From the NCBI GenBank assembly GCA_000004695.1, contig CM000152.2:4960001-5024000 (forward strand): a stretch of 64,000 nucleotides of DNA. Reading direction: 5' to 3'. This document shows, one piece after another, positions 3,446 to 62,329 of this stretch (the first letter of the stretch is position 1; every line of letters begins with the position of its first letter). The notes beneath the pieces were generated by a model. That model had not been told where the DNA came from. It worked only from the letters and a program-made list of their open reading frames with translations, and did no database searches. Origin of the DNA: Dictyostelium discoideum (lineage: Eukaryota). The position numbers and the translations under genes were made by a program.

Positions 3446-5153
3446 TTATGGTAATAGTTTTAAAGATTTATTAATTCTATTAAGTTTTTTCATTTTTCTA
3501 CAATTAAAAATCCAAGAAATTATGAAAGCAGTTAGAAAGATTAAAAACATAGAAAGTACCCCACAAAAGTAAGATAAAAGATTTTCCCTAAGTTCGTTCC
3601 ATTGTTTGGCAGTATCACTTGGAGTTTGACATGATTCGGCCAAATCAGTGAATGACGAATCACCATAGAAATTTGTATTTGCTTCATCACAAACAATTAG
3701 TTGGAAATCATTGGTACTTGATGGTGCAAATACAAATTGATTATTGTTGGCAATTACGTCTGATAAGAGAGAATTTATAATCGATGTACCATTTGAAAAA
3801 ATACGATTTGAAAATAAATAAATATTAGACATCTGAGGGCTGAAGAGTCCAACATTACCATGGAGGTTACCTTCTTTGGTGTTAAAATCACTAGAAACAT
3901 ATAAATCAATAGTACTATTTTCAAAGTATGCAAAGGTACTAATTAAGGTTATAACATCCATTATCACACCACTACTATAGTTAAGCTCAACATTGAATTG
4001 ATTTGCATTCAAAAGAGAATTAACAGAATAAATTAGTGATCTTGAACCATCAAATTCTCCAGAAATACTAACTTGGTTTAATGAAACACGACAATTGGAA
4101 AATCTAAGAAAAAAGGAATATATACTTCCATAATATTTTGTATTAATAATTGATACATTATTCATTGTAAAACTACCTGCAGTAATTGAGGCAATTGAAC
4201 TTCCACGATAAATTAAAAAAGAGTTGAAAATTGTATTTGAGATTGTTAAGTCAATTATAGGACCAAAATCATAATTAAGTACAAATGGGACATTATTATT
4301 GACATTGGTGATGTTATTTGAACCAAAATTGCAATTGTTTAAGATGAATGAAATATTGATATTATCATTTGGATATTGTTCACCAAAAAAGTATTGTGTT
4401 ACCATTTTCATTTCTAAATCTTGACTTGATTCATCATTTTTTAACAATTTAGAGGAATCCATTGATAATGGTTTTTTAATTCCATGATTTTTTAAATCAT
4501 TTGATTCACTACTAATTCTTGAATTACCTGAGAGTGAAAAATATGGAGAATAAAGAGATTCACATAAAAAATTTACATTTTCAATATCAACATTTAAAAA
4601 TGCATTTACACCTATATAACCTTGGAAAAAACAACCAGACTCTGAAACATTTAAAGAGTTACATCCAGAGATTGTTACATATCTAATCATAATGTTTGTA
4701 GGAACAATACTAGTTGCTTTATATGGATATTCGACAATGAATATTGGTGATACTGTACCATTTATATTTGGAACTAAAAATTGTACCAAATCATTTGAAT
4801 TTTGGGCACTAATAGAAATATTCAAACCATATAAATTTATTGGATTTTGAGAATAATAATTTCCTGAATCCAATAAAATTTCAATTGAATATTGATTATA
4901 TTCATAGGATTTGATTTGTTGAATTGAATAACCAATTGTTTTTCTAAAAAAAAAAAAAAAAAAAAAAATTAATTAATTATATATCATTACCAATAAATTA
5001 TTATCATTTTTTATTTATATATACTTACCATGGAGATGTAAAACTACCACAAGAGTTATTATCATTACCACTATTGGAAATGTATTTTGAGAATTGTATG
5101 TTACCAAAAGTTGAATTTATTAAAAGGAAAATTAAAAGTATTAAGTATTTCAT
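3446..5153 (-). CDS. Type I membrane/secreted glycoprotein, paralogue A. Exon 1 is 5153..5029 (signal peptide MKYLILLIFLLINSTFG...), exon 2 is 4943..3446. C-terminal TM plus a short basic tail. May be a pseudogene, see findings.
   Basis: Minus-strand ATG at 5153, cleavable signal peptide, donor GTAAGT at 5028, sole acceptor AG at 4945-4944, long ORF 3446..4873, many N-x-S/T sites. The C-terminal hydrophobic helix is followed by WIFNCRKMKKLNRINKSLKLLP. It is colinear with the downstream paralogue B (NLYGLNI...ISG..., FAYFENSTI..., LFSNRI.SNG.SI motifs). Confidence 0.55.
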
Positions 5154-5872: not shown

Positions 5873-7936
5873 CTATGCAGAATCATTGATTGATAAAAGT
5901 GATTTTGCTGCTTCTGCAGCTTCTTCTTCTTTTTCCTTTTTTAATTTTTGAATTGCTTTTCTTTTTCTTCTACAACACTTTCCAATAGCTGAAATGGTGA
6001 ACATAGTAACGAAAACCAATACAATGGAGAGAACACCACTTAAATATGATATGATAATTTCAAGTAAGTTGGCGTTAGTATTCCAAAATGATAAAACATT
6101 AATTTTAGCTTGACAAGAATCAGAGTAAGAAGTGAATTGATAATCACCATAGAATCTTGATATTCCATAGTCACATTGGACCAATTGATAAGAGTTTACA
6201 CTGTAAGGTGCATATTGGAATTGATTATTATTTGCTGATACATCTGAAGATTGAGAGTAAACAATTGATGAACCATTGGAACTGATACGATTAGAGAAAA
6301 GGTAAAGCTCAGAATTTACTGGATTGAAAATAGCAATATTACTTGAGAAATAATTTTTAACATCAGATTTTACGGATAAAACGATAGTGCTATTTTCAAA
6401 GTAAGCAAATGATTCTGTTAAAGTGATAAGATGATATGAAATTTCATAGTTTTTCTCTGAAATTATATTGAATTGATTGGCAGTTACAATACAATTAACA
6501 GCTTTGATAAATGGACCACTTATGGAACCGGAAATACTAACTTTGTTAAAAGAGACACGAGCATTAACCAAATAAAAGAGAGAGTTTGTTCCATTTGACA
6601 CAAATGATAAAGAAACAATAGAAACATTATCCATGGTTAAACTACCTCCGTAAAGTTGTACAAGTGGAGCACTATTAAATATATAATTTGTGTTAAAGAT
6701 TGAATTTGTGATTTTTAAATCAATGGTAAAATCAAAATTGGCATTTAAAACAACTGGATATTGATTATTCATTTGATAATTAAATTGACAATTGTTAAAG
6801 GCGAAAGAAATGTTAATGTTGTCATATGGATAAGAGTTTACACCAAATACTTGGTCTACAACTTCCATATAGAGATCTTGATAATAATTGTTATTATCAT
6901 TTTCACTATTATATGAAGATTCTGATGAATATGATTCTGGTGAATATGATTCTGATGAATATGATTCTGATGAATATGATTCTGATGAATATGATCCTGA
7001 TGATTCTGATCCTGATGATTCTGATGAATATGATCCTGATGATTCTGATGAATATGATCCTGATGATTCTGAATTGAATTCAGATGAATATGATTCTGAA
7101 TTTGATTCTGAATTTGATTCAGATGAAGAGTAAGATTCTGAACCATATGGAAGTTGATTTTTTTTTTGAGCAAGTTGATCATAAGAGTTATAGTTGTTGG
7201 AAACTGAAAAATATGAAAAATCGCTATTTGCACATGAAAATATTACATTTTCTGTTTTTACATTTAAAAATAGATTTTGGTAGGAATTAATATTTGATTG
7301 TAAAAGTAAACCATTCCAAGTGTATGATAAATCACAAGTAACAGTAAGATCTCTAAAAACGATATTTGTTGGAATAATATCATAATAATTTGAATGGTCT
7401 ACAGTGAATTGTGCTGTACCTAATGATGATGATGCTAAAAGTTGAACCGATTCTCCTGGGTTGGCTGCTCCAATTGTAATATTTAAACCATATAAATTGG
7501 TTGGTGTTAAAGAATGATGTGTTCCACGACCCAATAAAATTTCAATTGAAAATTGCTCATAAGAATATGATTTGATTTGATTAATTACATATTCAATTGA
7601 TTTACTTTTGTTTTTTTTTTTTTTTTTTGATAAAAAAAATAAAAAAAATAAATAAATAAAAAATTAGTATAAAAAATAATTTTGGTAAAATAAATAAATA
7701 AAAATAAATAAAAAATAAAAAATAAAAATAAAAATAAATAAAAAAAAAAATAAAAAAAAAAATAAAAATAAAAAATAAAAAAATAAAAAAAAAAAATTAA
7801 CTTACCATGGTTCCGTTGATGCACCACAATTTGGTTGATTATAACCATTAAAATCAACATATTTTTGAAATGTGATTTGGCCAAGTGATATATTTACTAT
7901 TGAAAGTAATACTACTAAAAGATTAAATATTTTCAT
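5873..7936 (-). CDS. Type I membrane glycoprotein, paralogue B. Exon 1 is about 7936..7806 (signal peptide MKIFNLLVVLLSIVNISLG), exon 2 is about 7604..5873. Contains an internal Ser/Glu/Tyr repeat insert. C-terminal TM plus a Lys/Glu-rich tail.
   Basis: Signal-peptide exon with donor GTAAGT. The intron is 100% A/T low-complexity sequence. The acceptor gives the in-frame junction ...EP-C-KSIEYVINQIKSYSYEQFSIEILLGRG... The architecture matches paralogue A. A repeat block at 6880-7135 encodes (SESY/SESSGSY)n. Confidence 0.6.
6880..7135 (-). repeat. Coding minisatellite of about 14 copies of an 18-bp unit (gattctgatgaatatgat and variants) inside paralogue B. It encodes a Ser-Glu-Ser-Tyr-rich low-complexity linker.
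   Basis: Direct tandem repetition is visible in the sequence. It produces three overlapping spurious ORFs in the ORF track (6826..7077, 6856..7233, 6888..7133). Confidence 0.8.
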
Positions 7937-52983: not shown

Positions 52984-53456
52984 AAAATTTGTTCAATTAT
53001 TATTATTACTAATACATTCATTATATAATTTTTAATATTTTATAGAATTCAATAGAAATTACAAAAGCAGAAGATTTCAAAGTTTTAGGTGAAATTGAAC
53101 AAAAATATTTTACAGATATGGTTGAAAAAGTTAAAGCTACAGGTGCAAATTTAGTTATTTGTCAATGGGGTTTCGATGATGAAGCCAATCATTTACTCCT
53201 TCAAAATAATTTACCAGCTGTTCGTTGGGTTGGTGGTTTAGATCTCGAAAAAATTGCTATGGCAACTGGTGGTCGTATCGTTGCTAGATTCGAAGATGTT
53301 AGCGCCGATAAATTAGGTAGAGCAGGTTTAGTTAGAGAAGTCGGTTTTGGTACAACTCAAGATCGTTACCTTTCAATTGAAGATTGCCCAAATACAAATG
53401 CAGTTACAATCTTTGTTAGAGGTGGTAATAAAATGGTAATTTTCAATTTAATAATT

Positions 53457-53539
<83 letters not shown>

Positions 53540-54049
53540 TAATTAATAATTAATTTATAACTAACAAAATAAATAATTTAAATACATAAATATATATAGA
53601 TTGTTGAAGAAGCTAAAAGAAGTATCCATGATGCATTATGTGTTACTCGTAATTTAATTAGAGATAATAGAGTAATTTATGGTGGTGGTTCATCAGAGAT
53701 TAGTTGTGGTTTAAAGATTTCAGCAATGGCTGATGATATTGCATCCATTGAACAATATGCCGTTAGAGCTTTTGCTGATGCTTTAGATGCTATTCCATTA
53801 GCATTGGCTGAAAATAGTGGTCTTCCATCCATCGAATCTTTATCAACCGTAAAGGCTATGCAAATTAAAGAAAAGAACCCACGTCTTGGTATCGATTGTA
53901 ATCATAGAGACACCAATGATATGAAGGCTCAACACGTTTTCGATACTCTTCCAGGTAAAACTCAACAATTCCTCTTGGCCAATCAAGTAGTTAAAATGAT
54001 TTTGAAAATCGATGATATTATTAAAATGGGTCCAGGAGCTGACGAATAA
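52149..54049 (+). CDS. cct5: T-complex protein 1 subunit epsilon (CCT5). Exons are 52149..52925, 53046..53436 and 53600..54049.
   Basis: [58 protein letters not shown]...[36 protein letters not shown] matches human CCT5 ([36 protein letters not shown]...). Donors are GTAAAT and GTAATT. Intron 2 is largely (AAT)n. C-terminal exon: [34 protein letters not shown]...MGPGADE*. Confidence 0.85.
53458..53545. repeat. (AAT)n microsatellite of about 28 units inside cct5 intron 2.
   Basis: The ORF track reads through it as poly-Asn (53118..53546). The real donor GTAATT lies at 53437, just before the repeat. Confidence 0.8.
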
Positions 54050-54228
54050 AGCGGATCATTTTATTAAAAAAAAAAAATAAAAAAATAAATAAAAAAAAAA
54101 AAAAAAATAAAAAAAAAAATTAAAATACTATTGATATTTATATATATATATATTTTATTCTTTTTACTTTATTTTCTTTGTAATTTCTAAATTATTACAA
54201 GAGCAACCAATATAATATGTGAATATAT

Positions 54229-56793
54229 TTAAAAATTATTATTTTGTGGAATATTTATTTTTTTAATTAAATTACCAAAGTTTAAACCAGTTGGAACATG
54301 CATTGAAAAATCTATAATGGTATCATAATAATTTAAATTTAAACTATTTAAAAAATAATCTAAAATATTAAAATTACCATATAAAAAAGAAGTACTAATT
54401 ATTGAAGAAATTAAATTTGGGTCAAAAATTTTTTGAAAAAGATTATTTTGATAGAGTACCATATATTTAATTAAATACAGATTACCGTATTCAGCACAAC
54501 CAACCATTATAAATTTCAATAGATCTAAATATTTAATTGGATTTATTTTTTCAAATTTAAAATATAATTCTATAATTTTTAAAAGACCATTTAAATTATT
54601 TAATCTTGCAATTTCATTTGTAATTTTATTAATTATCCCATTTGATGGTATTGTTGTGATTGTTGAAAAATATTCTCCAAATTTTCCAATGCATTGAAGT
54701 GTTTCAAGGTAGACTAAACCATGTTTTTTTGATTCTAATGTATCTACATTTAACCGGATTTCATATAACCATTTACAAATTTTATAAGCTAATAAACCTT
54801 CATTGTTTTTAAAAGGGTTTGTAAATACTTTAATACTAAATTCATCATCAGTTTTAAGTAATCTCGATCTAAAAGGTTCATAGAATATTGATGGTGGAAA
54901 TTCTAATGATAGAGGTAAATTTTTAATTATAAATTTGATTTCGTCCATGTACAAATGTTTATCAAATGATTTATTAATGCAACCTATAATGTCAACATTT
55001 GATAAATCAAATACCTCTGGGTTACTAATCATATAACAGAGTGTTTTTAAAATTTTACCATTTAAACAATACCGATTGAAATCTTTAAATTCTCTATTTG
55101 TTAAAGATTTCCATATATTTTGTTCCTTTGGAATTAATTGTTGATACCTTTTTATCATATCAATTCTTCCAAATTGAAAACAAGTTGCAATTGAAGTTTT
55201 ATTAAAAAAAACATTTAATATTGGATTTGACCAACAATAGTTCAACATTTCAATAGATTTTATTGAATAAACTAATTTTATTTGATTTTCAATTGAAGCA
55301 GAAACATGATTGTATAATTTATTATTAAATACATATTCCAATAATGATATATCATTAAAATGAATCAATAAACAAATTATTAAAAAATGATCTATAATTT
55401 GATTATATTGACCATCTGGCTTTAAAACTTGATCAATAAATGAAAATTGATGTTCTTTATTATCTTTGCAATATTTAAATAATAGATTCATATTTTCTTT
55501 TTCTACATATAAATTGAAAATATCATCTACCTCAATTTTTTGATTTTTAAATAAACAATAATCAAGATTACCAAACTTTAATGACTGTTTAATGTACTTG
55601 TTTTGATGAATTGGTGCACTATTTAATTTACTTGGTAAACCATTCTTTAAAATTCTTTTATACTTTTCATTTTTTTTTTCTTCTTCATCTTTTTGTTGTT
55701 GATTATCATTCTTTTCATTTGAAATTTGATATTTTAAATAGTGAATTAAAATTGGTTTTTGAATTACAAGTTGATATGTTGATAAAATTAATTTTAAATA
55801 TTTATTTTCAATTATTGTATTTCTTGAATTATGTATTAGTTTTTTTAATCTTGTTTTTAATTTTAATTTATTAAATGGATTATTTGTTTCAATTAATTTT
55901 AAATTTTCATTTATTTTCTCTAAATGCTTATTTAAAGTATATGGTACATATTTAATATTATAAAAAAAACTGCATGCATCAATGGTGTTTTGAATTGTAA
56001 AATTATTATAAAATGGGTCATCATCAAATAGTTTTTTTGGTATTATAAACTTGTATTTATTTCTTATTCTTTCCTTTTTAATTTGATCATTTTCAAGTAA
56101 ATAATTTAAAATTTTAAATTTTAAATTTATTTTTTGTGGATATTGTTCAATAAAGTTTAAAATCTCTGTTATTGTATATTTTTCAAAATGGTTTTGATTA
56201 TTATTATTATTATTATTATAATTATTATTATTGATTATGTTGTTTTCATTTGTTGTTAATGTTGATAAATATTTTAAAATTTTTAATGAAGATTTTGATT
56301 TAATATAAGTTGGTAATAAAGCATTTATTAATTGGTTTGTTGTCATACTTTTATTTATATATTCTTTGTCAATAATTAATTTTAATATTAAAATGTTATC
56401 ACTTTTTATAGCAATTTCTGCAAAATTTAAAAAATTAAAATATTCTTTATACCTATTAAATAATAATTGGTAAAATGATAAAATCAATTCAATTGTTTCT
56501 TCATTTGCTTGATCACTATTATTATATTGATGTATTTGTTTATCTTTATTTTTAAAGTTAATTAAAATAAATAATTTTTGAATTGTTTTTGAAAATGTTT
56601 CTCTAAATTTATTATTATTATTATGATATGAGAAAATTAATGTTTTTCCATTATGTACCAATTTAATTAATTCTTTAATTTTATTAAATTTTATTAATAA
56701 ACTAATATGATTATTATCATCTTTAGCATATTCAAATATTTTTTTAAATAAATATTTGTTTCTAAAAACTTTAAAAAATAATTGTTCATTCAT
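54229..56793 (-). CDS. Large orphan protein (854 aa), Asn/Lys/Ile/Leu-rich, with no recognisable domain. Probably Dictyostelium-specific.
   Basis: Long uninterrupted ORF beginning MNEQLFFKVFRNKYLFKKIFEYAKDDNNH. The only basis for calling it coding is a reading frame far longer than expected by chance in AT-rich DNA. Confidence 0.45.
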   Translation of the reverse strand: MNEQLFFKVFRNKYLFKKIFEYAKDDNNHISLLIKFNKIKELIKLVHNGKTLIFSYHNNNNKFRETFSKTIQKLFILINFKNKDKQIHQYNNSDQANEETIELILSFYQLLFNRYKEYFNFLNFAEIAIKSDNILILKLIIDKEYINKSMTTNQLINALLPTYIKSKSSLKILKYLSTLTTNENNIINNNNYNNNNNNNQNHFEKYTITEILNFIEQYPQKINLKFKILNYLLENDQIKKERIRNKYKFIIPKKLFDDDPFYNNFTIQNTIDACSFFYNIKYVPYTLNKHLEKINENLKLIETNNPFNKLKLKTRLKKLIHNSRNTIIENKYLKLILSTYQLVIQKPILIHYLKYQISNEKNDNQQQKDEEEKKNEKYKRILKNGLPSKLNSAPIHQNKYIKQSLKFGNLDYCLFKNQKIEVDDIFNLYVEKENMNLLFKYCKDNKEHQFSFIDQVLKPDGQYNQIIDHFLIICLLIHFNDISLLEYVFNNKLYNHVSASIENQIKLVYSIKSIEMLNYCWSNPILNVFFNKTSIATCFQFGRIDMIKRYQQLIPKEQNIWKSLTNREFKDFNRYCLNGKILKTLCYMISNPEVFDLSNVDIIGCINKSFDKHLYMDEIKFIIKNLPLSLEFPPSIFYEPFRSRLLKTDDEFSIKVFTNPFKNNEGLLAYKICKWLYEIRLNVDTLESKKHGLVYLETLQCIGKFGEYFSTITTIPSNGIINKITNEIARLNNLNGLLKIIELYFKFEKINPIKYLDLLKFIMVGCAEYGNLYLIKYMVLYQNNLFQKIFDPNLISSIISTSFLYGNFNILDYFLNSLNLNYYDTIIDFSMHVPTGLNFGNLIKKINIPQNNNF

Positions 56794-56843
56794 TTTTTAT
56801 CTAACTATAAATTTTAAACTTTAATTCCAATCATTATTTTTAT

Positions 56844-56878
<35 letters not shown>

Positions 56879-57016
56879 TAAAAAAAAAAAAAAAAAAAAA
56901 TCTTTTTCTTAAGAAAAAAAAAAGATATTTATTTTTGCAAATGTCTCTTTTTTTTTTTTTTTATGAAATAATAAAATATCAACAAGGATTGTAAGAAGTA
57001 TTTAATTTTTATTTAT

Positions 57017-60000
57017 TTAAAATAAAATGAATGAAATTATGGTTATAATTTTTAATAACATAAATGGAGCCAATAGTTTTGATGAAATCGATAGTTCATC
57101 ATCGTCTGTTGTGGATGGTTGGTTTGTTGGATTACTAGTTGTTGATTGACCACCTGTTGTAGATTGACCACCTGTTGTAGATTGACCACCTGTTGTAGAT
57201 TGTGATTTATAGGTAACTGTTGTTGAAACTTCAAATCCACCTATTTTTAATAGCAAATTAAAGTTACCACCTGGTTTGGCAGGATAACTGAATGTAATTG
57301 AATTGGTAGTTAACTCAATAATATCACAATTATAACCATCAATTGTTAATACTGCTAATGATTTATCTGAAACATGATATTCACCATTGAACTTAACATC
57401 CCCACCTGTTGAATTTAATTCACTTGTTGTAATTAAAATTGATTTTAAATAAATAAAGGTCACACTATTTGAAGTTTGACCTCCTGATTCAACTATTACA
57501 GTAAATTCATCACCAATTAACAAATCAGAAGTAGGTGAATTATCGTTAAAGGTGATTTCATCATTACCATTATTTAAGCTTGCAACACTTGATTCAAATC
57601 CTTCACCATTAATATAAACTCTATTTGGTGTAAAATAATCAAACCAAGATCCTTTGAATACAATTATATCAGATGATGACCAATAATAACTATTTAAAAG
57701 TGTTGGAGAAGGTGGCGCAACGACATTTAACATTGTGAAATAATATAAACCTCCAATATTAATTAATGTTTCTTGACTACCAATTGATAATGGAGGATAA
57801 GAGAATTTAATATTGGTTGGTGTGATTTTAATTACTTTACATTCTAAACCATTAATTGATAGTGAAACTATTGAATTATTTGATGTACCGAATTTACCAG
57901 CAAATAAAGCACCTACACTACCAAATGAATAAAGATTTTCCTCATTTGACAAGTAAATTTCTTTAATATAATTGAATGAAACAATATTTGAAACCAATCC
58001 ACCTGTTTCTATTTGAACTGTAAATATGTCACCTTCAACAATGGATAAATTTTCTATAGAAAATGAAATAGCATCTGAAACTTCAGATCCAAAGGCAAGT
58101 GTTGATGTAAAAGTTGCACCATTAATAATTATATTGTTTAGATTATCATAACTAAAAGCAGTACCATAGATAATTATCTCAGTTTTATCTGATGACCATT
58201 TATAATTGTTAAAAATTGTTGGGTTTTCTGGGACGACATATTGAACGGTAGTAGTATTTTCAAAACCACCAACATTAATTAAAAGTGGATATTGGCCTGG
58301 TGATCCACTTAATGATGGATATCTAAATGTAATTAAATTTAAAGAAACTGAATTTACTGAACAGCTACTTCCATTGATTGAAAGTGTAACAAGACTTTTA
58401 TCTGTAACGCCATACATGCCAGTGAATGAAACTATGCCACCTGTTGTATTTAGATCTTTTACATCAACTTTAATTGAATCAATATAATTAAATGTAATTA
58501 CATTTGATGATTGACCTTGAACCATTACTTTGATGGTAAATGCTTGACCAATTGAAAGTGAACTTGTTGGTGAAAAACTTGATAAACTTATACTATCATA
58601 ACCTGGATTTGTTGAAGATGCAACTGCACTATTAACTTGATATACATCATCATTGAGAACTATAACGTTTGAATCATAATATCCAAACCATTTACCATTT
58701 ATTATTAATCTATCATCGGTTGTCCATTCATATTTATAAATAACTTGTGGTGGAGGTGAAGTTATATAGGTAACATTTGTTTTATATTCGAATCCACCAA
58801 CAAAATAAATTAATTGATAGGTACCTGCTCCATTAACTGGGTATTGGAATTGGATGGTAGTTGGAGAAATTGAAATTACAGAGCATGGTACATCATTGAT
58901 TGAAAATGTGACAATACTTTTATCTGAAGTACCATAGGATCCTCCAAAACTAATAATACCACCAATCGATTGCAAAGGTAATACATCAATAGTAACTGAT
59001 TTAATAAATATAAATTGAATCAAATTAGTTATTTGACTTCCAATTTTAACGTGTACTTGGAATGGAGATCCAACCACAAGTGATTTTGGTGTCGAATTTA
59101 ATAATTTGATTTCATCTGGGTAAGAATAATCCAAGCTTGATGCAGTTGCTGGTGTTGAATCATAATCGATTCCATCAATGTTAATAATATTTTTATAATA
59201 ATAAGTAAACCATTTACCATAGAATGTTAATGCAAGATCACCATTTCCAAGTGTTGTCCAATAGTATTTATTCATTAGTGTTGGAGTGGGTGTATTTATA
59301 ATTGTAATTACTTTCGAGGATCTAATTGTGCCAATAACTAAAGTCAATGTCAAGGTTCCTGGTCCTGATCTATATGGATATTTAAATGAGATCTCAGTTG
59401 GTGATAATGATGTAATGGGGATATCTAATTCATCAAATTTTAATGTTGCGATGGTTATATTTGAAGTTGAAAAAGAACCTGGGTATGTCATTTCCCCTCC
59501 AATGGTATATAAATTATAGGCCATCATTGAAATTGGTTTGATTAGATAAAAGGTTGCACTGGCTGATCTTTGACCCATAGTTGTAACTGATACAGTAAAT
59601 AATGCACCTTGAGGAATTGATGAATGTGCAGAGGCTGGTAAAATCAAATTATCATATCCTGGTTCTGTTGATGAAGCTGTTGCTAAAATAGAAAATGGTG
59701 TAGAGTTTATTTCAACTATATTTGGCTCTACATAGCTAAATGATGAACCAAAAATCATCAATACAACCGCACCATTTGAAAGTGTCCAATCAAATTTATT
59801 TAATATAGTTGGGGCAGGTGCTTGTGAAATGGTAACTTGTGTTGTAAATTCATAACTACTTTGTAATACTAAAACCAAATCATATGTGCCAACTGACAAA
59901 ACTGGGTAAGTGAATGTAACTGATGTTGGATTAACTGCGTTAACTGTACACACAGAACCACCAATGGTAATTGAAACAAGTGAAGGATTTCCCACTTTAA

Positions 60001-61688
60001 ATATACCAGCAAAAGTAACTACTCCTCCAATTGTAGATAATGGTTTTACTGTCATTGAAACCTCTTTATAGTAAGTTAAAGATACTTGATTTGATACTTG
60101 AGATCCAACTTTAACAGATAAGGTGAATGAGGTGGCTTCTGTCATTCCATTGAATGGTGTTGAACTTGAAAATGTAAATTGATCTTGAGATGGGTTTTTG
60201 GTTGATTGAATTGCTAGAGTTTGGTTTGATAGTACACTATTTATAATTGCAATATTTTGATAAACATAACTAAAACCTGTACCACTTATTACCATTAAGT
60301 AATTACCTCCAACTTGAACATAACGATATTTTGGTAAAACAGTTGGTATTTCATAACTATATGTAAAAGTTGTTGATTGTAAGTTATAACCAAATTGAGC
60401 AACCAAATCCTTTCCAGTTCCGTCACCTTGTGGAATTCTTAAAACTATTTGGGTATTTGGAATTATTGAATCAATGGTTACAACATTTGAAGATGGTGTT
60501 GGTGATAGTGTATTAAAAGTCCAACCAAAATCTACACCAGTAATGGTAATAAATGAAACATTATTTGTTTTAATAAGTGGGATATTTTTGTTGAAAGACA
60601 ATGTTGGACAAGTACTTGGTGGTGTTGATGATAATGTAAAATCGTTAAAATTATTTGGAAGGATTATACCGCCTATGTCATTTGGTGGATAACATTTGAA
60701 ACAAGATGGTACATTTCCTGATAATTTGTTAGAATGGATTCTAAGAACATTTGGATTAAATTTACAATAAAAGTTATTTGTAAATGGAATTGACCCAGTA
60801 AACTCTGAATTAATAAGGGAAAAAGATTTAACTTTAGAATGTTGAACTGTGCTTGGGGTTGGTAAAGGTTGGACGTAATTATTGCCTTCAATTCTAACAC
60901 TTTCAAGATTTGTATAATCTAGGTTGTTCATTATTAATAAATGATTTTTAAAATTACTAATATTTAAATTAGAAATTAGTTTTAAATTAAAAGGATTACC
61001 ATTCGGGTTATTTGTTATTGTTTATATTAGATGGTTAAAATACATACATGTTAGAACTTTCTGGGAATTTAATACAACCAAATGTGGCGCATGAATCTAA
61101 AAATCCTACATCTGTAAAATCCCTATTTATTTTTTTGTATAGAAAAAAAAAATTAATATTTAAGAAATAGAAAAAATATATCATTATTACTATAAATTTA
61201 TACATACATTGTTGTACCCTTTGTATATTTTGATAAATCTATCAAATTATTTTGTGGAAATTTTAAACCTCTTCCCTCAATGGTGAGATAATTGAGCATT
61301 GGTAAATTTAAAACGGTATCTGGAAATTCCCATTTTTGAATTTTATCTTGGTCAGTATATCTAAAGTAGAGAGCTAAATCTGAAATAGGTAGGTATCCTA
61401 AGTAAGGGAAAGCAAAATTAGTGTATTGAGAATCTGACTTATCATTATTTATAATTAAATAGACTGCTCCCAAATTTGGACAAATTTCAATATTATTTGG
61501 AAGTGGTGCATAAAAAGTAACTATCATGTAAACAAATGACAATCCTGGCTGGCATGATGACAATGTTACAGGGTATTTAAATCCATTTGCTGAGTCTTCA
61601 ATATTCAAATTTTGAATTTTACCACTACTAAAGAATAGCTCTGGAAGTGGAACTGATTTTTTTAAAAAAAAAAAAAAAATATTAATAC

Positions 61689-61771
<83 letters not shown>

Positions 61772-62329
61772 TATTATTATTTTATACACATGAACATACC
61801 TGACATTTTTTGAAAAATAACATCATTTAATGATGGTGGTAATTGAATATTATTTGGAATTGCTTGATTTACATGATTAATTGATCTATTATAATTAATT
61901 ATAATATTTAAATTTTATTAATTCAAACTTTAATTAGATTTATATTTTTTTATTTAATTTAATACAAAACATTAGTACTTACAAGAAATTAAGTTTTGTT
62001 AATTTATTTATATCTGTCCAAAAAGCTGTTGAAACAAAGAAATTAGGACCAATGGTAATACTTTTTAAATCAGTAAATAAACCAAAACTTGTTGTTATTA
62101 CCACACCTGAGCCACTGCCAGTGTTTATTCCTGTCAAAATTAAATACCCATTATTACCATTATCACAAGTAAAAGCACTATTAGTGCATGGTGTTTGAGT
62201 ATTGACCCCATACAATTGATTTAATAATTGTTGTGCTGCAATGTTTTGATTATTATTTAAATCAAGAGCATTATTTAATGAAATAAAACTTATAAAAATA
62301 ATTATTAGAATATTAAAAATGTATTTCAT
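57017..62329 (-). CDS. Large cell-surface glycoprotein with N-terminal signal peptide, an LRR-like region and about 8 tandem IPT/TIG-like (E-set) repeats. It has a Thr/Gly/Gln-rich stalk (STTGGQ x4) and a C-terminal hydrophobic anchor, and resembles the Tgr (tiger) family. Five exons: about 62329..61985, 61888..61798, 61667..61203, 61128..61043 and 60978..57017.
   Basis: Exon 1 reads MKYIFNILIIIFISFISLNNA... (signal peptide) with donor GTAAGT. Exon 2 reads SINHVNQAIPNNIQLPPSLNDVIFQKMS with donor GTATGT. Exon 3 reads PLPELFFSSGKIQNLNIEDS...KYTKGTTM with donor GTATGT. Exon 4 reads DFTDVGFLDSCATFGCIKFPESSN with donor GTATGT. Exon 5 reads NFKNHLLIMNNLDY... and continues as a 1304-aa ORF. That ORF has a repeated unit of about 100 aa (...VVT/ITIDS.../...GGFE...TT.V.Y...P.P....Y.W), typical of IPT/TIG repeats. 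The C-terminus is ...LLAPFMLLKIITIISFILF*. Confidence 0.55.

Follow-up and report, generated by a model that had tools for sequence, protein, structure and literature searches.

Tgr proteins of dictyostelids are transmembrane proteins with IPT/TIG/E-set repeats, whose cytoplasmic domains signal (PMC12745789; 10.1101/2025.10.22.684067). The AX4 strain of Dictyostelium discoideum has 38 tgr genes, plus 26 pseudogenes, in subfamilies A-T, many of them in head-to-head pairs or clusters, and tgrB1/C1 is extraordinarily polymorphic (PMC12745789; 10.1101/2025.10.22.684067). Some tgr genes are singletons, and some are without a transmembrane domain, for example TgrB2 (10.1101/2025.10.22.684067). Mean nucleotide diversity (pi) of the genome is given there as ~0.003. 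To this background we compared a 64-kb stretch of D. discoideum AX4 chromosome 3 (the window), in which a minus-strand gene at 57017..62329 (hereafter the TIG gene) encodes a 1630-aa protein with TIG repeats and lies beside an open reading frame (ORF) of 854 aa. An initial annotation of this DNA had proposed a Tgr-like recognition locus. We propose, with a probability of about 0.6, that the TIG gene encodes a long, lipid-anchored cell-surface glycoprotein with leucine-rich repeats (LRRs) and TIG modules, that it belongs to an LRR–TIG family separate from Tgr, and that the 854-aa neighbour is unrelated to it.

Pfam recognised the TIG family (PF01833) in five stretches of the TIG protein (E = 4.7e-20). 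Module hidden Markov models (HMMs), which we built from the protein's own repeats and used to set the module boundaries, separated seven B-type TIG modules from six divergent A-type modules. Examined singly, five of the seven B-type modules were matched by Pfam TIG, the best at 2e-7. We read the array as 13 TIG-type modules, seven clear and six divergent. The first of them, TIG0 (residues 436-519; 60353..60604, minus strand as for all features of this gene), was found by the B-module HMM at 2.1e-19 and is kept in all head-bearing paralogues. It is followed by six tandem A-B pairs (residues 521-1569; 57203..60349), delimited by module alignments, HMMs and Pfam, with A units of about 95 aa. By the module HMMs, A1 and B1 cover residues 521-616 and 617-696, A2 and B2 residues 698-791 and 793-872, A3 and B3 residues 874-971 and 972-1050, A4 and B4 residues 1052-1145 and 1146-1226, A5 and B5 residues 1228-1317 and 1319-1398, and A6 and B6 residues 1400-1490 and 1491-1569. 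The D. citrinum orthologues likewise carry six A and seven B modules. Profile searches of the PDB gave nothing significant, either for the A or for the B modules.

The array ends in a Ser/Thr/Gly/Gln stalk (residues 1570-1603; 57101..57202), in which Tandem Repeats Finder detected an 18-bp unit encoding STTGGQ in 3.6 copies (57138-57202). Stalk length differs by lineage: the cryptic 'D. discoideum' lineage L003 has one STTGGQ unit fewer than the 3.6 of AX4, and two D. citrinum-clade assemblies have about 55 and about 110 residues, which explains most of their 53-aa length difference. The last residues of the protein (1604-1630; 57020..57100) consist of small residues (…LSISS) and then a hydrophobic tail, residues 1606-1630, that ends the protein. 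Judged by inspection, this C-terminus, …DDDELSISSKLLAPFMLLKIITIISFILF-COOH, has the layout of a glycosylphosphatidylinositol (GPI) attachment signal, and the same layout was found in nearly all family members. The hydropathy scan showed only two hydrophobic segments in the whole protein, the N-terminal signal peptide and the tail, and no transmembrane helix with a cytoplasmic tail, zero residues being left after the hydrophobic tail. The TIG protein is thus predicted to be probably GPI-anchored.

At the other end, a putative signal peptide comprises residues 1-20 (MKYIFNILIIIFISFISLNN|A; 62270..62329), as judged by the hydropathy scan and by signal-like N-terminal segments at the equivalent place in paralogues. 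Residues 21-435 (60605..62269, spread over exons 1-5 and four introns) form a head that we delimited by family alignment, profile and weak fold support. A Cys pair at its N-terminus is followed by about 14 irregular leucine-rich repeats, and a C-terminal cap rich in Cys closes it. Ten Cys/Pro positions are invariant in an alignment of 15 family heads, namely C28, C35, C362, C383, C386, C414 and four prolines. The profile of these 15 heads matched the ectodomains of plant LRR receptors (GSO1 at 4e-60, FLS2 at 5e-57 and many others), and its positions 318-387 aligned repeatedly to repeats of GSO1, FLS2, HSL1 and PEPR1. These positions correspond to the clearest plant-type repeats of the head (LxxLxLxxNxLxGxIP, about residues 331-404; 60698..60919), defined against GSO1, FLS2 and HSL1. 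Pfam gave no match on the head of the TIG protein alone, even at E <= 10, and Pfam LRR families matched 5 of the 15 family heads. An AlphaFold2 head model contained short strands every ~24 residues, and nearly all Foldseek matches of this model were LRR proteins (TLR4, LGR4, internalin A, LRRTM2), none of them at E <= 0.001 (best E = 4.6e-3). Because the family profile matches, Pfam recognises 5 of 15 members and the structural comparison weakly agrees, the description of the predicted head as LRR-like is supported. A word-indexed homologue search with the 501-aa head found no match despite the presence of 77%-identical D. citrinum orthologues in the database, and we treated this result as a limit of the word index.

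Much of the architecture given in the initial annotation is retained. The signal peptide appears as an N-terminal hydrophobic segment, and the LRR-like N-terminal region is borne out by the 15-member profile, the Pfam check on the single protein having given nothing. TIG repeats are confirmed by Pfam, though as 13 modules (7 B and 6 A) in place of about eight; the (STTGGQ)4 stalk exists with 3.6 copies, not four; and the proposed membrane anchor corresponds to a C-terminal hydrophobic segment that closes the protein in the manner of a GPI signal.

To place the TIG protein among its relatives, we searched 1.84 billion representative proteins exhaustively with phmmer (query, residues 327-1526; cut-off, E <= 0.001). 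Only 27 relatives were found: the orthologue from D. citrinum, two A-B-array proteins that are 'headless' (P0005 and P0006), a set of dictyostelid proteins of about 740 aa, and a giant protein of Protostelium with a few bacterial TIG proteins. Every relative that could be named was 'hypothetical', 'uncharacterized' or 'IPT/TIG domain-containing', and the name tgr was absent among them. A word-indexed search with the whole TIG protein returned two D. citrinum orthologues only. The ~740-aa paralogues have the last part of the head, TIG0 and an A-B pair in common with the TIG protein, and matched it over head end, TIG0 and A1 at E = 3.7e-50 to 1.4e-12. Head, TIG0, A and B modules are collinear between them, and the module HMMs found one A and one or two B modules in the paralogues vs six A and seven B in the TIG protein. 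The usual plan of the family is accordingly a head, TIG0, one A-B pair, a stalk and a GPI-like tail in about 740 aa, as in DDB_G0269740. Going by the predicted proteins, the TIG protein is a stretched member of this small dictyostelid LRR–TIG family, with six A-B pairs instead of one. What it has in common with DDB_G0269740, DDB_G0284073 and their relatives is the signal peptide, the Cys-flanked LRR head, TIG0, the A and B modules, a Ser/Thr/Pro stalk and the GPI-like tail; it differs from these usual members in length (1630 aa against ~740 aa).

The headless paralogues are P0005 (D. dimigraforme, 1206 aa), P0006 (D. citrinum, 952 aa) and P0009 (a fragment, D. cf. discoideum). They have no LRR head; a signal peptide leads straight into 5-6 A-B pairs, after which come a stalk rich in Thr and Gln and, at the C-terminus, a hydrophobic segment. 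Their arrays are 42-45% identical to that of the TIG gene, closer than those of head-bearing paralogues. P0005 ends in a GPI-like tail, and P0006 has a few polar residues beyond the hydrophobic segment.

The TIG gene is almost certainly DDB_G0281853. We equated the two because the identifier of the neighbouring gene is adjacent (DDB_G0281851) and because of the shared family. In the accessible part of a dictyBase-derived supplementary table of PMC3188802, DDB_G0281853 is a 'putative cell surface glycoprotein' with its own identifier in the gene-name column, and it is listed directly beside DDB_G0269740 and DDB_G0284073, which we had found independently as paralogues. The gene is already present in the D. 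discoideum reference annotation under this description, and its novelty is low. No gene identifier of the locus was found in the main texts of the literature. The run of entries with the same product text in supplementary file 4 of PMC3188802, as far as this file was available, comprises DDB_G0281967, DDB_G0283481, DDB_G0269740, DDB_G0272052, DDB_G0281377, DDB_G0284073, DDB_G0281853 and DDB_G0267684, with DDB_G0272052 additionally flagged as LRR. The available part of supplementary file 3 gives DDB_G0274825 as the InParanoid orthologue of D. purpureum 154716 (= P0007). By the shared product text and DDB_G0274825, these portions of the supplement suggest that the AX4 complement of the LRR–TIG family is probably about nine genes. 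Two AX4 family genes in the same entries lie within about 100 gene identifiers of the TIG gene on chromosome 3.

The region is AT-rich dictyostelid DNA, for which we calculated about 0.09 stops per random codon. Both large ORFs of the locus, 57017-60931 (1304 aa) and 54229-56793 (854 aa), are present on the minus strand, in agreement with the initial annotation, and at this stop frequency (about 9%) chance cannot account for frames that stay open over 1304 and 854 codons. Our splice model of the TIG gene has five exons: exon 1 (62329-61983, 347 nt), exon 2 (61885-61800, 86 nt), exon 3 (61652-61208, 445 nt), exon 4 (61122-61048, 75 nt) and exon 5 (60956-57017, 3940 nt including the stop codon at 57019-57017), the last of which encodes 80% of the protein. 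Five exons had been expected, three of them tiny; only two are (86 and 75 nt). The four introns are all GT..AG, 85-147 nt long and 5-20% GC. In L004 (GCA_054883475.1), an almost identical, AX2-like assembly, an independent annotation gives a 1630-aa product with identical start and stop and a coding sequence identical to AX4. Further, every splice junction was crossed without a gap in alignments with the D. citrinum orthologues and the paralogues. Intron 2 contains a perfect 79-nt homopolymer (T on the plus strand, 61691-61769), in which the AX2-like assembly is about 42 nt shorter. Four 'mismatches' between AX4 and AX2, the only apparent ones in 7.7 kb, were rejected as alignment artefacts in this homopolymer.

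Intact orthologues of the TIG gene (1639, 1692 and 1624 aa) were found in three other assemblies, where the gene is single-copy and syntenic between a sedolisin gene and cct5. We computed the ratio of nonsynonymous (dN) to synonymous (dS) divergence of the TIG gene on exon 5, in comparisons between lineages. Between AX4 and L003, dS was 0.066, dN 0.037 and dN/dS 0.56; cct5, used as a control, had a dS of ~0.03 and a dN/dS of 0.10 and 0.13 in exons 1 and 3 and of 0.41 in the short exon 2. Between AX4 and D. citrinum, the TIG gene showed a dS of 0.41, a dN of ~0.14-0.17 and a dN/dS of 0.33-0.41, compared with a dS of ~0.19 and a dN/dS of 0.03-0.15 for cct5. The two D. citrinum-clade assemblies differed by a dS of 0.108, a dN of 0.048 and a dN/dS of 0.44 in the TIG gene, and by a dS of 0.061 and a dN/dS of 0.01 in cct5 plus a sedolisin fragment. 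In a few 100-codon windows of the TIG gene dN/dS exceeded 1, with small counts. The TIG protein evolves fast for Dictyostelium, net selection is purifying and synonymous divergence is 1-2x the background. This between-lineage pattern, which is not a population test, points against hypervariability of the gene. We had also considered tgrB1/C1-like polymorphism from the 90% identity of the two D. citrinum proteins; it was rejected as strain divergence, dS being 0.06 even in cct5.

Directly downstream of the TIG gene, the 854-aa ORF (54229..56793, minus strand) matches exactly the AX4 protein DDB_G0281851 (Q54TD2), a 'hypothetical protein'. That it has no detectable domain was confirmed: it had no Pfam match, and no PDB profile match either. 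It is rich in Asn, Leu, Ile and Lys. By hydropathy it has no signal peptide and no convincing transmembrane segment, with one weakly hydrophobic internal stretch, and AlphaFold2 predicted an all-helical structure of unusable confidence (predicted local distance difference test score, pLDDT, 38). One relative was detectable, an 833-aa protein in the cryptic lineage L003 with 93-96% identity and a dN/dS of 0.22, and because of this relative we consider DDB_G0281851 a real, constrained gene. The D. citrinum locus lacks it, so it is not a conserved partner of the TIG gene. DDB_G0281851 is probably an intracellular, all-helical and lineage-restricted protein, unrelated to the surface protein, and the two genes are a chance juxtaposition at an ordinary locus.

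We propose that the N-terminal signal peptide would take the 1630-aa product into the secretory pathway and that a GPI anchor would then hold it on the outer face of the plasma membrane. The short STTGGQ stalk may be O-glycosylated. If each of the 13 Ig-like (immunoglobulin-like) modules measures about 3.5-4 nm, they would form a rod of about 45-50 nm, which would lift the LRR head, the likely ligand-binding part, above the glycocalyx. Since the predicted protein has no cytoplasmic domain, it may act as an adhesin or ligand-capture molecule, or could signal only via partners; candidate ligands would be another cell, the matrix or slime sheath, or bacteria. An adhesion or recognition role would be a reasonable guess from the predicted architecture. 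In the part of the expression record available for the family, the paralogue DDB_G0269740 is enriched in vegetative cells; this hints at an interaction of the family with substrate or prey and says nothing direct on the TIG gene.

The possibility that the TIG gene is a Tgr member that forms, together with its neighbour, a polymorphic kin-recognition locus like tgrB1/tgrC1 has to be weighed against this proposal. Both the TIG protein and TgrB1/TgrC1 are secreted dictyostelid surface proteins with arrays of Ig-like IPT/TIG repeats and are candidates for cell-cell interaction, and the signal sequence and extracellular repeats that mark the Tgr family were found here. The relatively fast amino-acid change (dN/dS 0.33-0.56, with some windows above 1) and the variable stalk would also fit, as would the existence of tgr singletons and of tgr genes without a transmembrane domain (10.1101/2025.10.22.684067). 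However, the transmembrane helix and cytoplasmic signalling tail of Tgr proteins were not seen in the hydropathy scan, and the LRR head is foreign to the described Tgr architecture. None of the 27 relatives drawn from 1.84 billion proteins is named tgr, and this very short list argues against any detectable closeness of the large Tgr family to the TIG protein. In the accessible entries of the PMC3188802 table, the TIG gene and its paralogues carry the same product text and no tgr name, whereas tgrR1 (DDB_G0275745) is named in the part of a comparable dictyBase-derived table that was available. The TIG gene points the same way as the sedolisin gene and the orphan, not head-to-head with either, and no other TIG gene or family member was seen in the 64-kb window; there is neither a cluster nor a divergent partner. 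Synonymous divergence of only ~1-2x that of neighbouring genes speaks against deeply diverged alleles, and the gene is single-copy, syntenic and of moderate dN/dS, with no sign of the hyper-divergent alleles of tgrB1/C1. Finally, the neighbour looks intracellular, has no signal peptide and is not syntenic in D. citrinum, which leaves no recognition pair. We consider a Tgr gene in a kin-recognition locus highly improbable; of the original Tgr-like reading, a TIG-repeat, LRR-headed, secreted and membrane-attached surface protein is what stands.

A rather unlikely alternative, though one that agrees with a long, modular, Ser/Thr-rich glycoprotein without a signalling domain, is that the TIG protein is shed or secreted as a component of the slime sheath, stalk tube or spore coat, its C-terminal signal providing no more than a temporary anchor that is later cleaved. 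Release of GPI proteins can occur, and Dictyostelium matrix proteins are typically repetitive glycoproteins. Against this, the GPI-like tail is kept across the family and one paralogue is truly transmembrane, so that membrane attachment appears to matter, and the Pfam scans found no cellulose-binding domain and no known coat or sheath domain. We regard it as extremely improbable that either gene is a decaying or non-functional ORF. Such a reading could draw on both genes being known here as sequence alone, on the neighbour having no homologue outside the discoideum clade and on its extreme Asn/Lys/Ile/Leu composition, but neither frame is broken in any lineage where it occurs, both genes have a dN/dS under 1 (TIG gene 0.33-0.56, neighbour 0.22), and in the TIG gene all splice sites are kept and the protein is collinear with its paralogues.

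Several points weigh against our preferred reading of a GPI-anchored LRR–TIG protein outside Tgr. The protein is known here from its gene sequence alone, and the GPI anchor is predicted from a sequence pattern. In the D. purpureum paralogue P0013, a true transmembrane helix is combined with a cytoplasmic tail, so that the anchoring mode varies within the family. The A-type modules are marginally TIG, with a Pfam match at E = 0.065 in two of the six. Deep profiles of the A and B modules (59 and 103 sequences) aligned collinearly in hhalign with E = 1.4e-4 at a probability of only 52%, and profiles of 6-7 sequences gave nothing. In the head, the strong LRR-profile match is confined to the last ~2.5 repeats, and the AlphaFold2 head model, for which the D. 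citrinum orthologue was the target, is of low confidence (pLDDT 48). The separation from TgrA-T follows from architecture, names and the list of relatives, not from direct sequence comparison. Additionally, the assignment to DDB_G0281853 depends on the number of the neighbouring identifier and on the place of the entry beside paralogues that we had verified.

Outside the dictyostelids, the closest analogy in design is with the internalins of Listeria (InlA), which likewise combine an LRR head, an Ig-like or repeat stalk and a C-terminal signal for covalent attachment. InlA was among the top Foldseek matches of the low-confidence head model, though not significantly (best E = 4.6e-3), and we claim no sequence homology. 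Internalins differ in being bacterial, in using an LPXTG wall anchor and not GPI, and in having one Ig-like inter-repeat domain vs the 13 TIG modules found here. The plant LRR receptors (GSO1, FLS2, BRI1, PGIP) resemble the last repeats of the head, which follow LxxLxLxxNxLxGxIP with profile E down to 4e-60. Here too the likeness is limited: about 2.5 repeats match well and the remainder of the head is irregular, and the TIG protein has no kinase or other cytoplasmic domain and no transmembrane helix, with TIG modules and a GPI-like tail after its head. On animal cells, LRIG, LINGO and AMIGO proteins likewise join an LRR head to Ig-like domains and act at the surface in adhesion or recognition, and LRIG1 and LRRTM2 were weak fold matches. 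However, they have far fewer Ig domains, which are I-set and not TIG, they are transmembrane with cytoplasmic tails, and they are of independent origin.

The slot between the TIG gene and cct5 is a small gene-turnover hotspot. In AX4/AX2 it holds the orphan only; in the cryptic lineage L003 it holds a 243-aa BB_PF (pore-forming-like) gene and the orphan; and in D. citrinum (assemblies L001 and L002) it holds an unrelated 241-aa secreted Cys-rich CfaA_B_C gene and no orphan. The slot spans 54050-57016 in the window, 7968-9860 in L003 and 15789-17832 in L001, and a clean 1.9-kb indel between L003 and the window maps to window positions ~56947-56966. Upstream of the TIG gene lies the sedolisin-like gene, which by accession order would correspond to DDB_G0281823 / Q54TD0 / XP_640459. 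The downstream gene cct5 has a spliced model of 538 aa; an (AAT)n run at 53436-53599 in its second intron reads as poly-Asn in ORF 53118-53546 and lengthens the apparent exon. Elsewhere in the window, the minus-strand ORFs 3446-4873 (475 aa) and 5873-7534 (553 aa) resemble each other at the N-terminus, as a tandem duplicate would. Pfam also gave a strong FNIP-repeat match (1.3e-51) in one of the window's large ORFs.

For Dictyostelium, these results mean that TIG-repeat surface proteins should not be called 'Tgr-like' by default, as an LRR–TIG family distinct from Tgr, uncharacterised and probably GPI-anchored, exists beside it. Beyond this correct filing the importance is small, and nothing suggests a new kind of system. 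The AX4 family of about nine genes nevertheless forms a defined set of candidate adhesion or ligand-binding molecules outside Tgr. As a long shot, the LRR–TIG family might be a second surface recognition or adhesion system of group-4 dictyostelids, independent of Tgr, with DDB_G0281853 as its long-reach member. It might have a part in partner discrimination, the partners being kin, mating partners or bacterial prey, and the LRR head would set the specificity. The features that can be cited for this idea are the six A-B pairs, a dN/dS of up to ~0.6, the variable stalk and the adjoining slot that differs in three lineages. If true, this would be relevant to the way in which social amoebae distinguish partners or prey.

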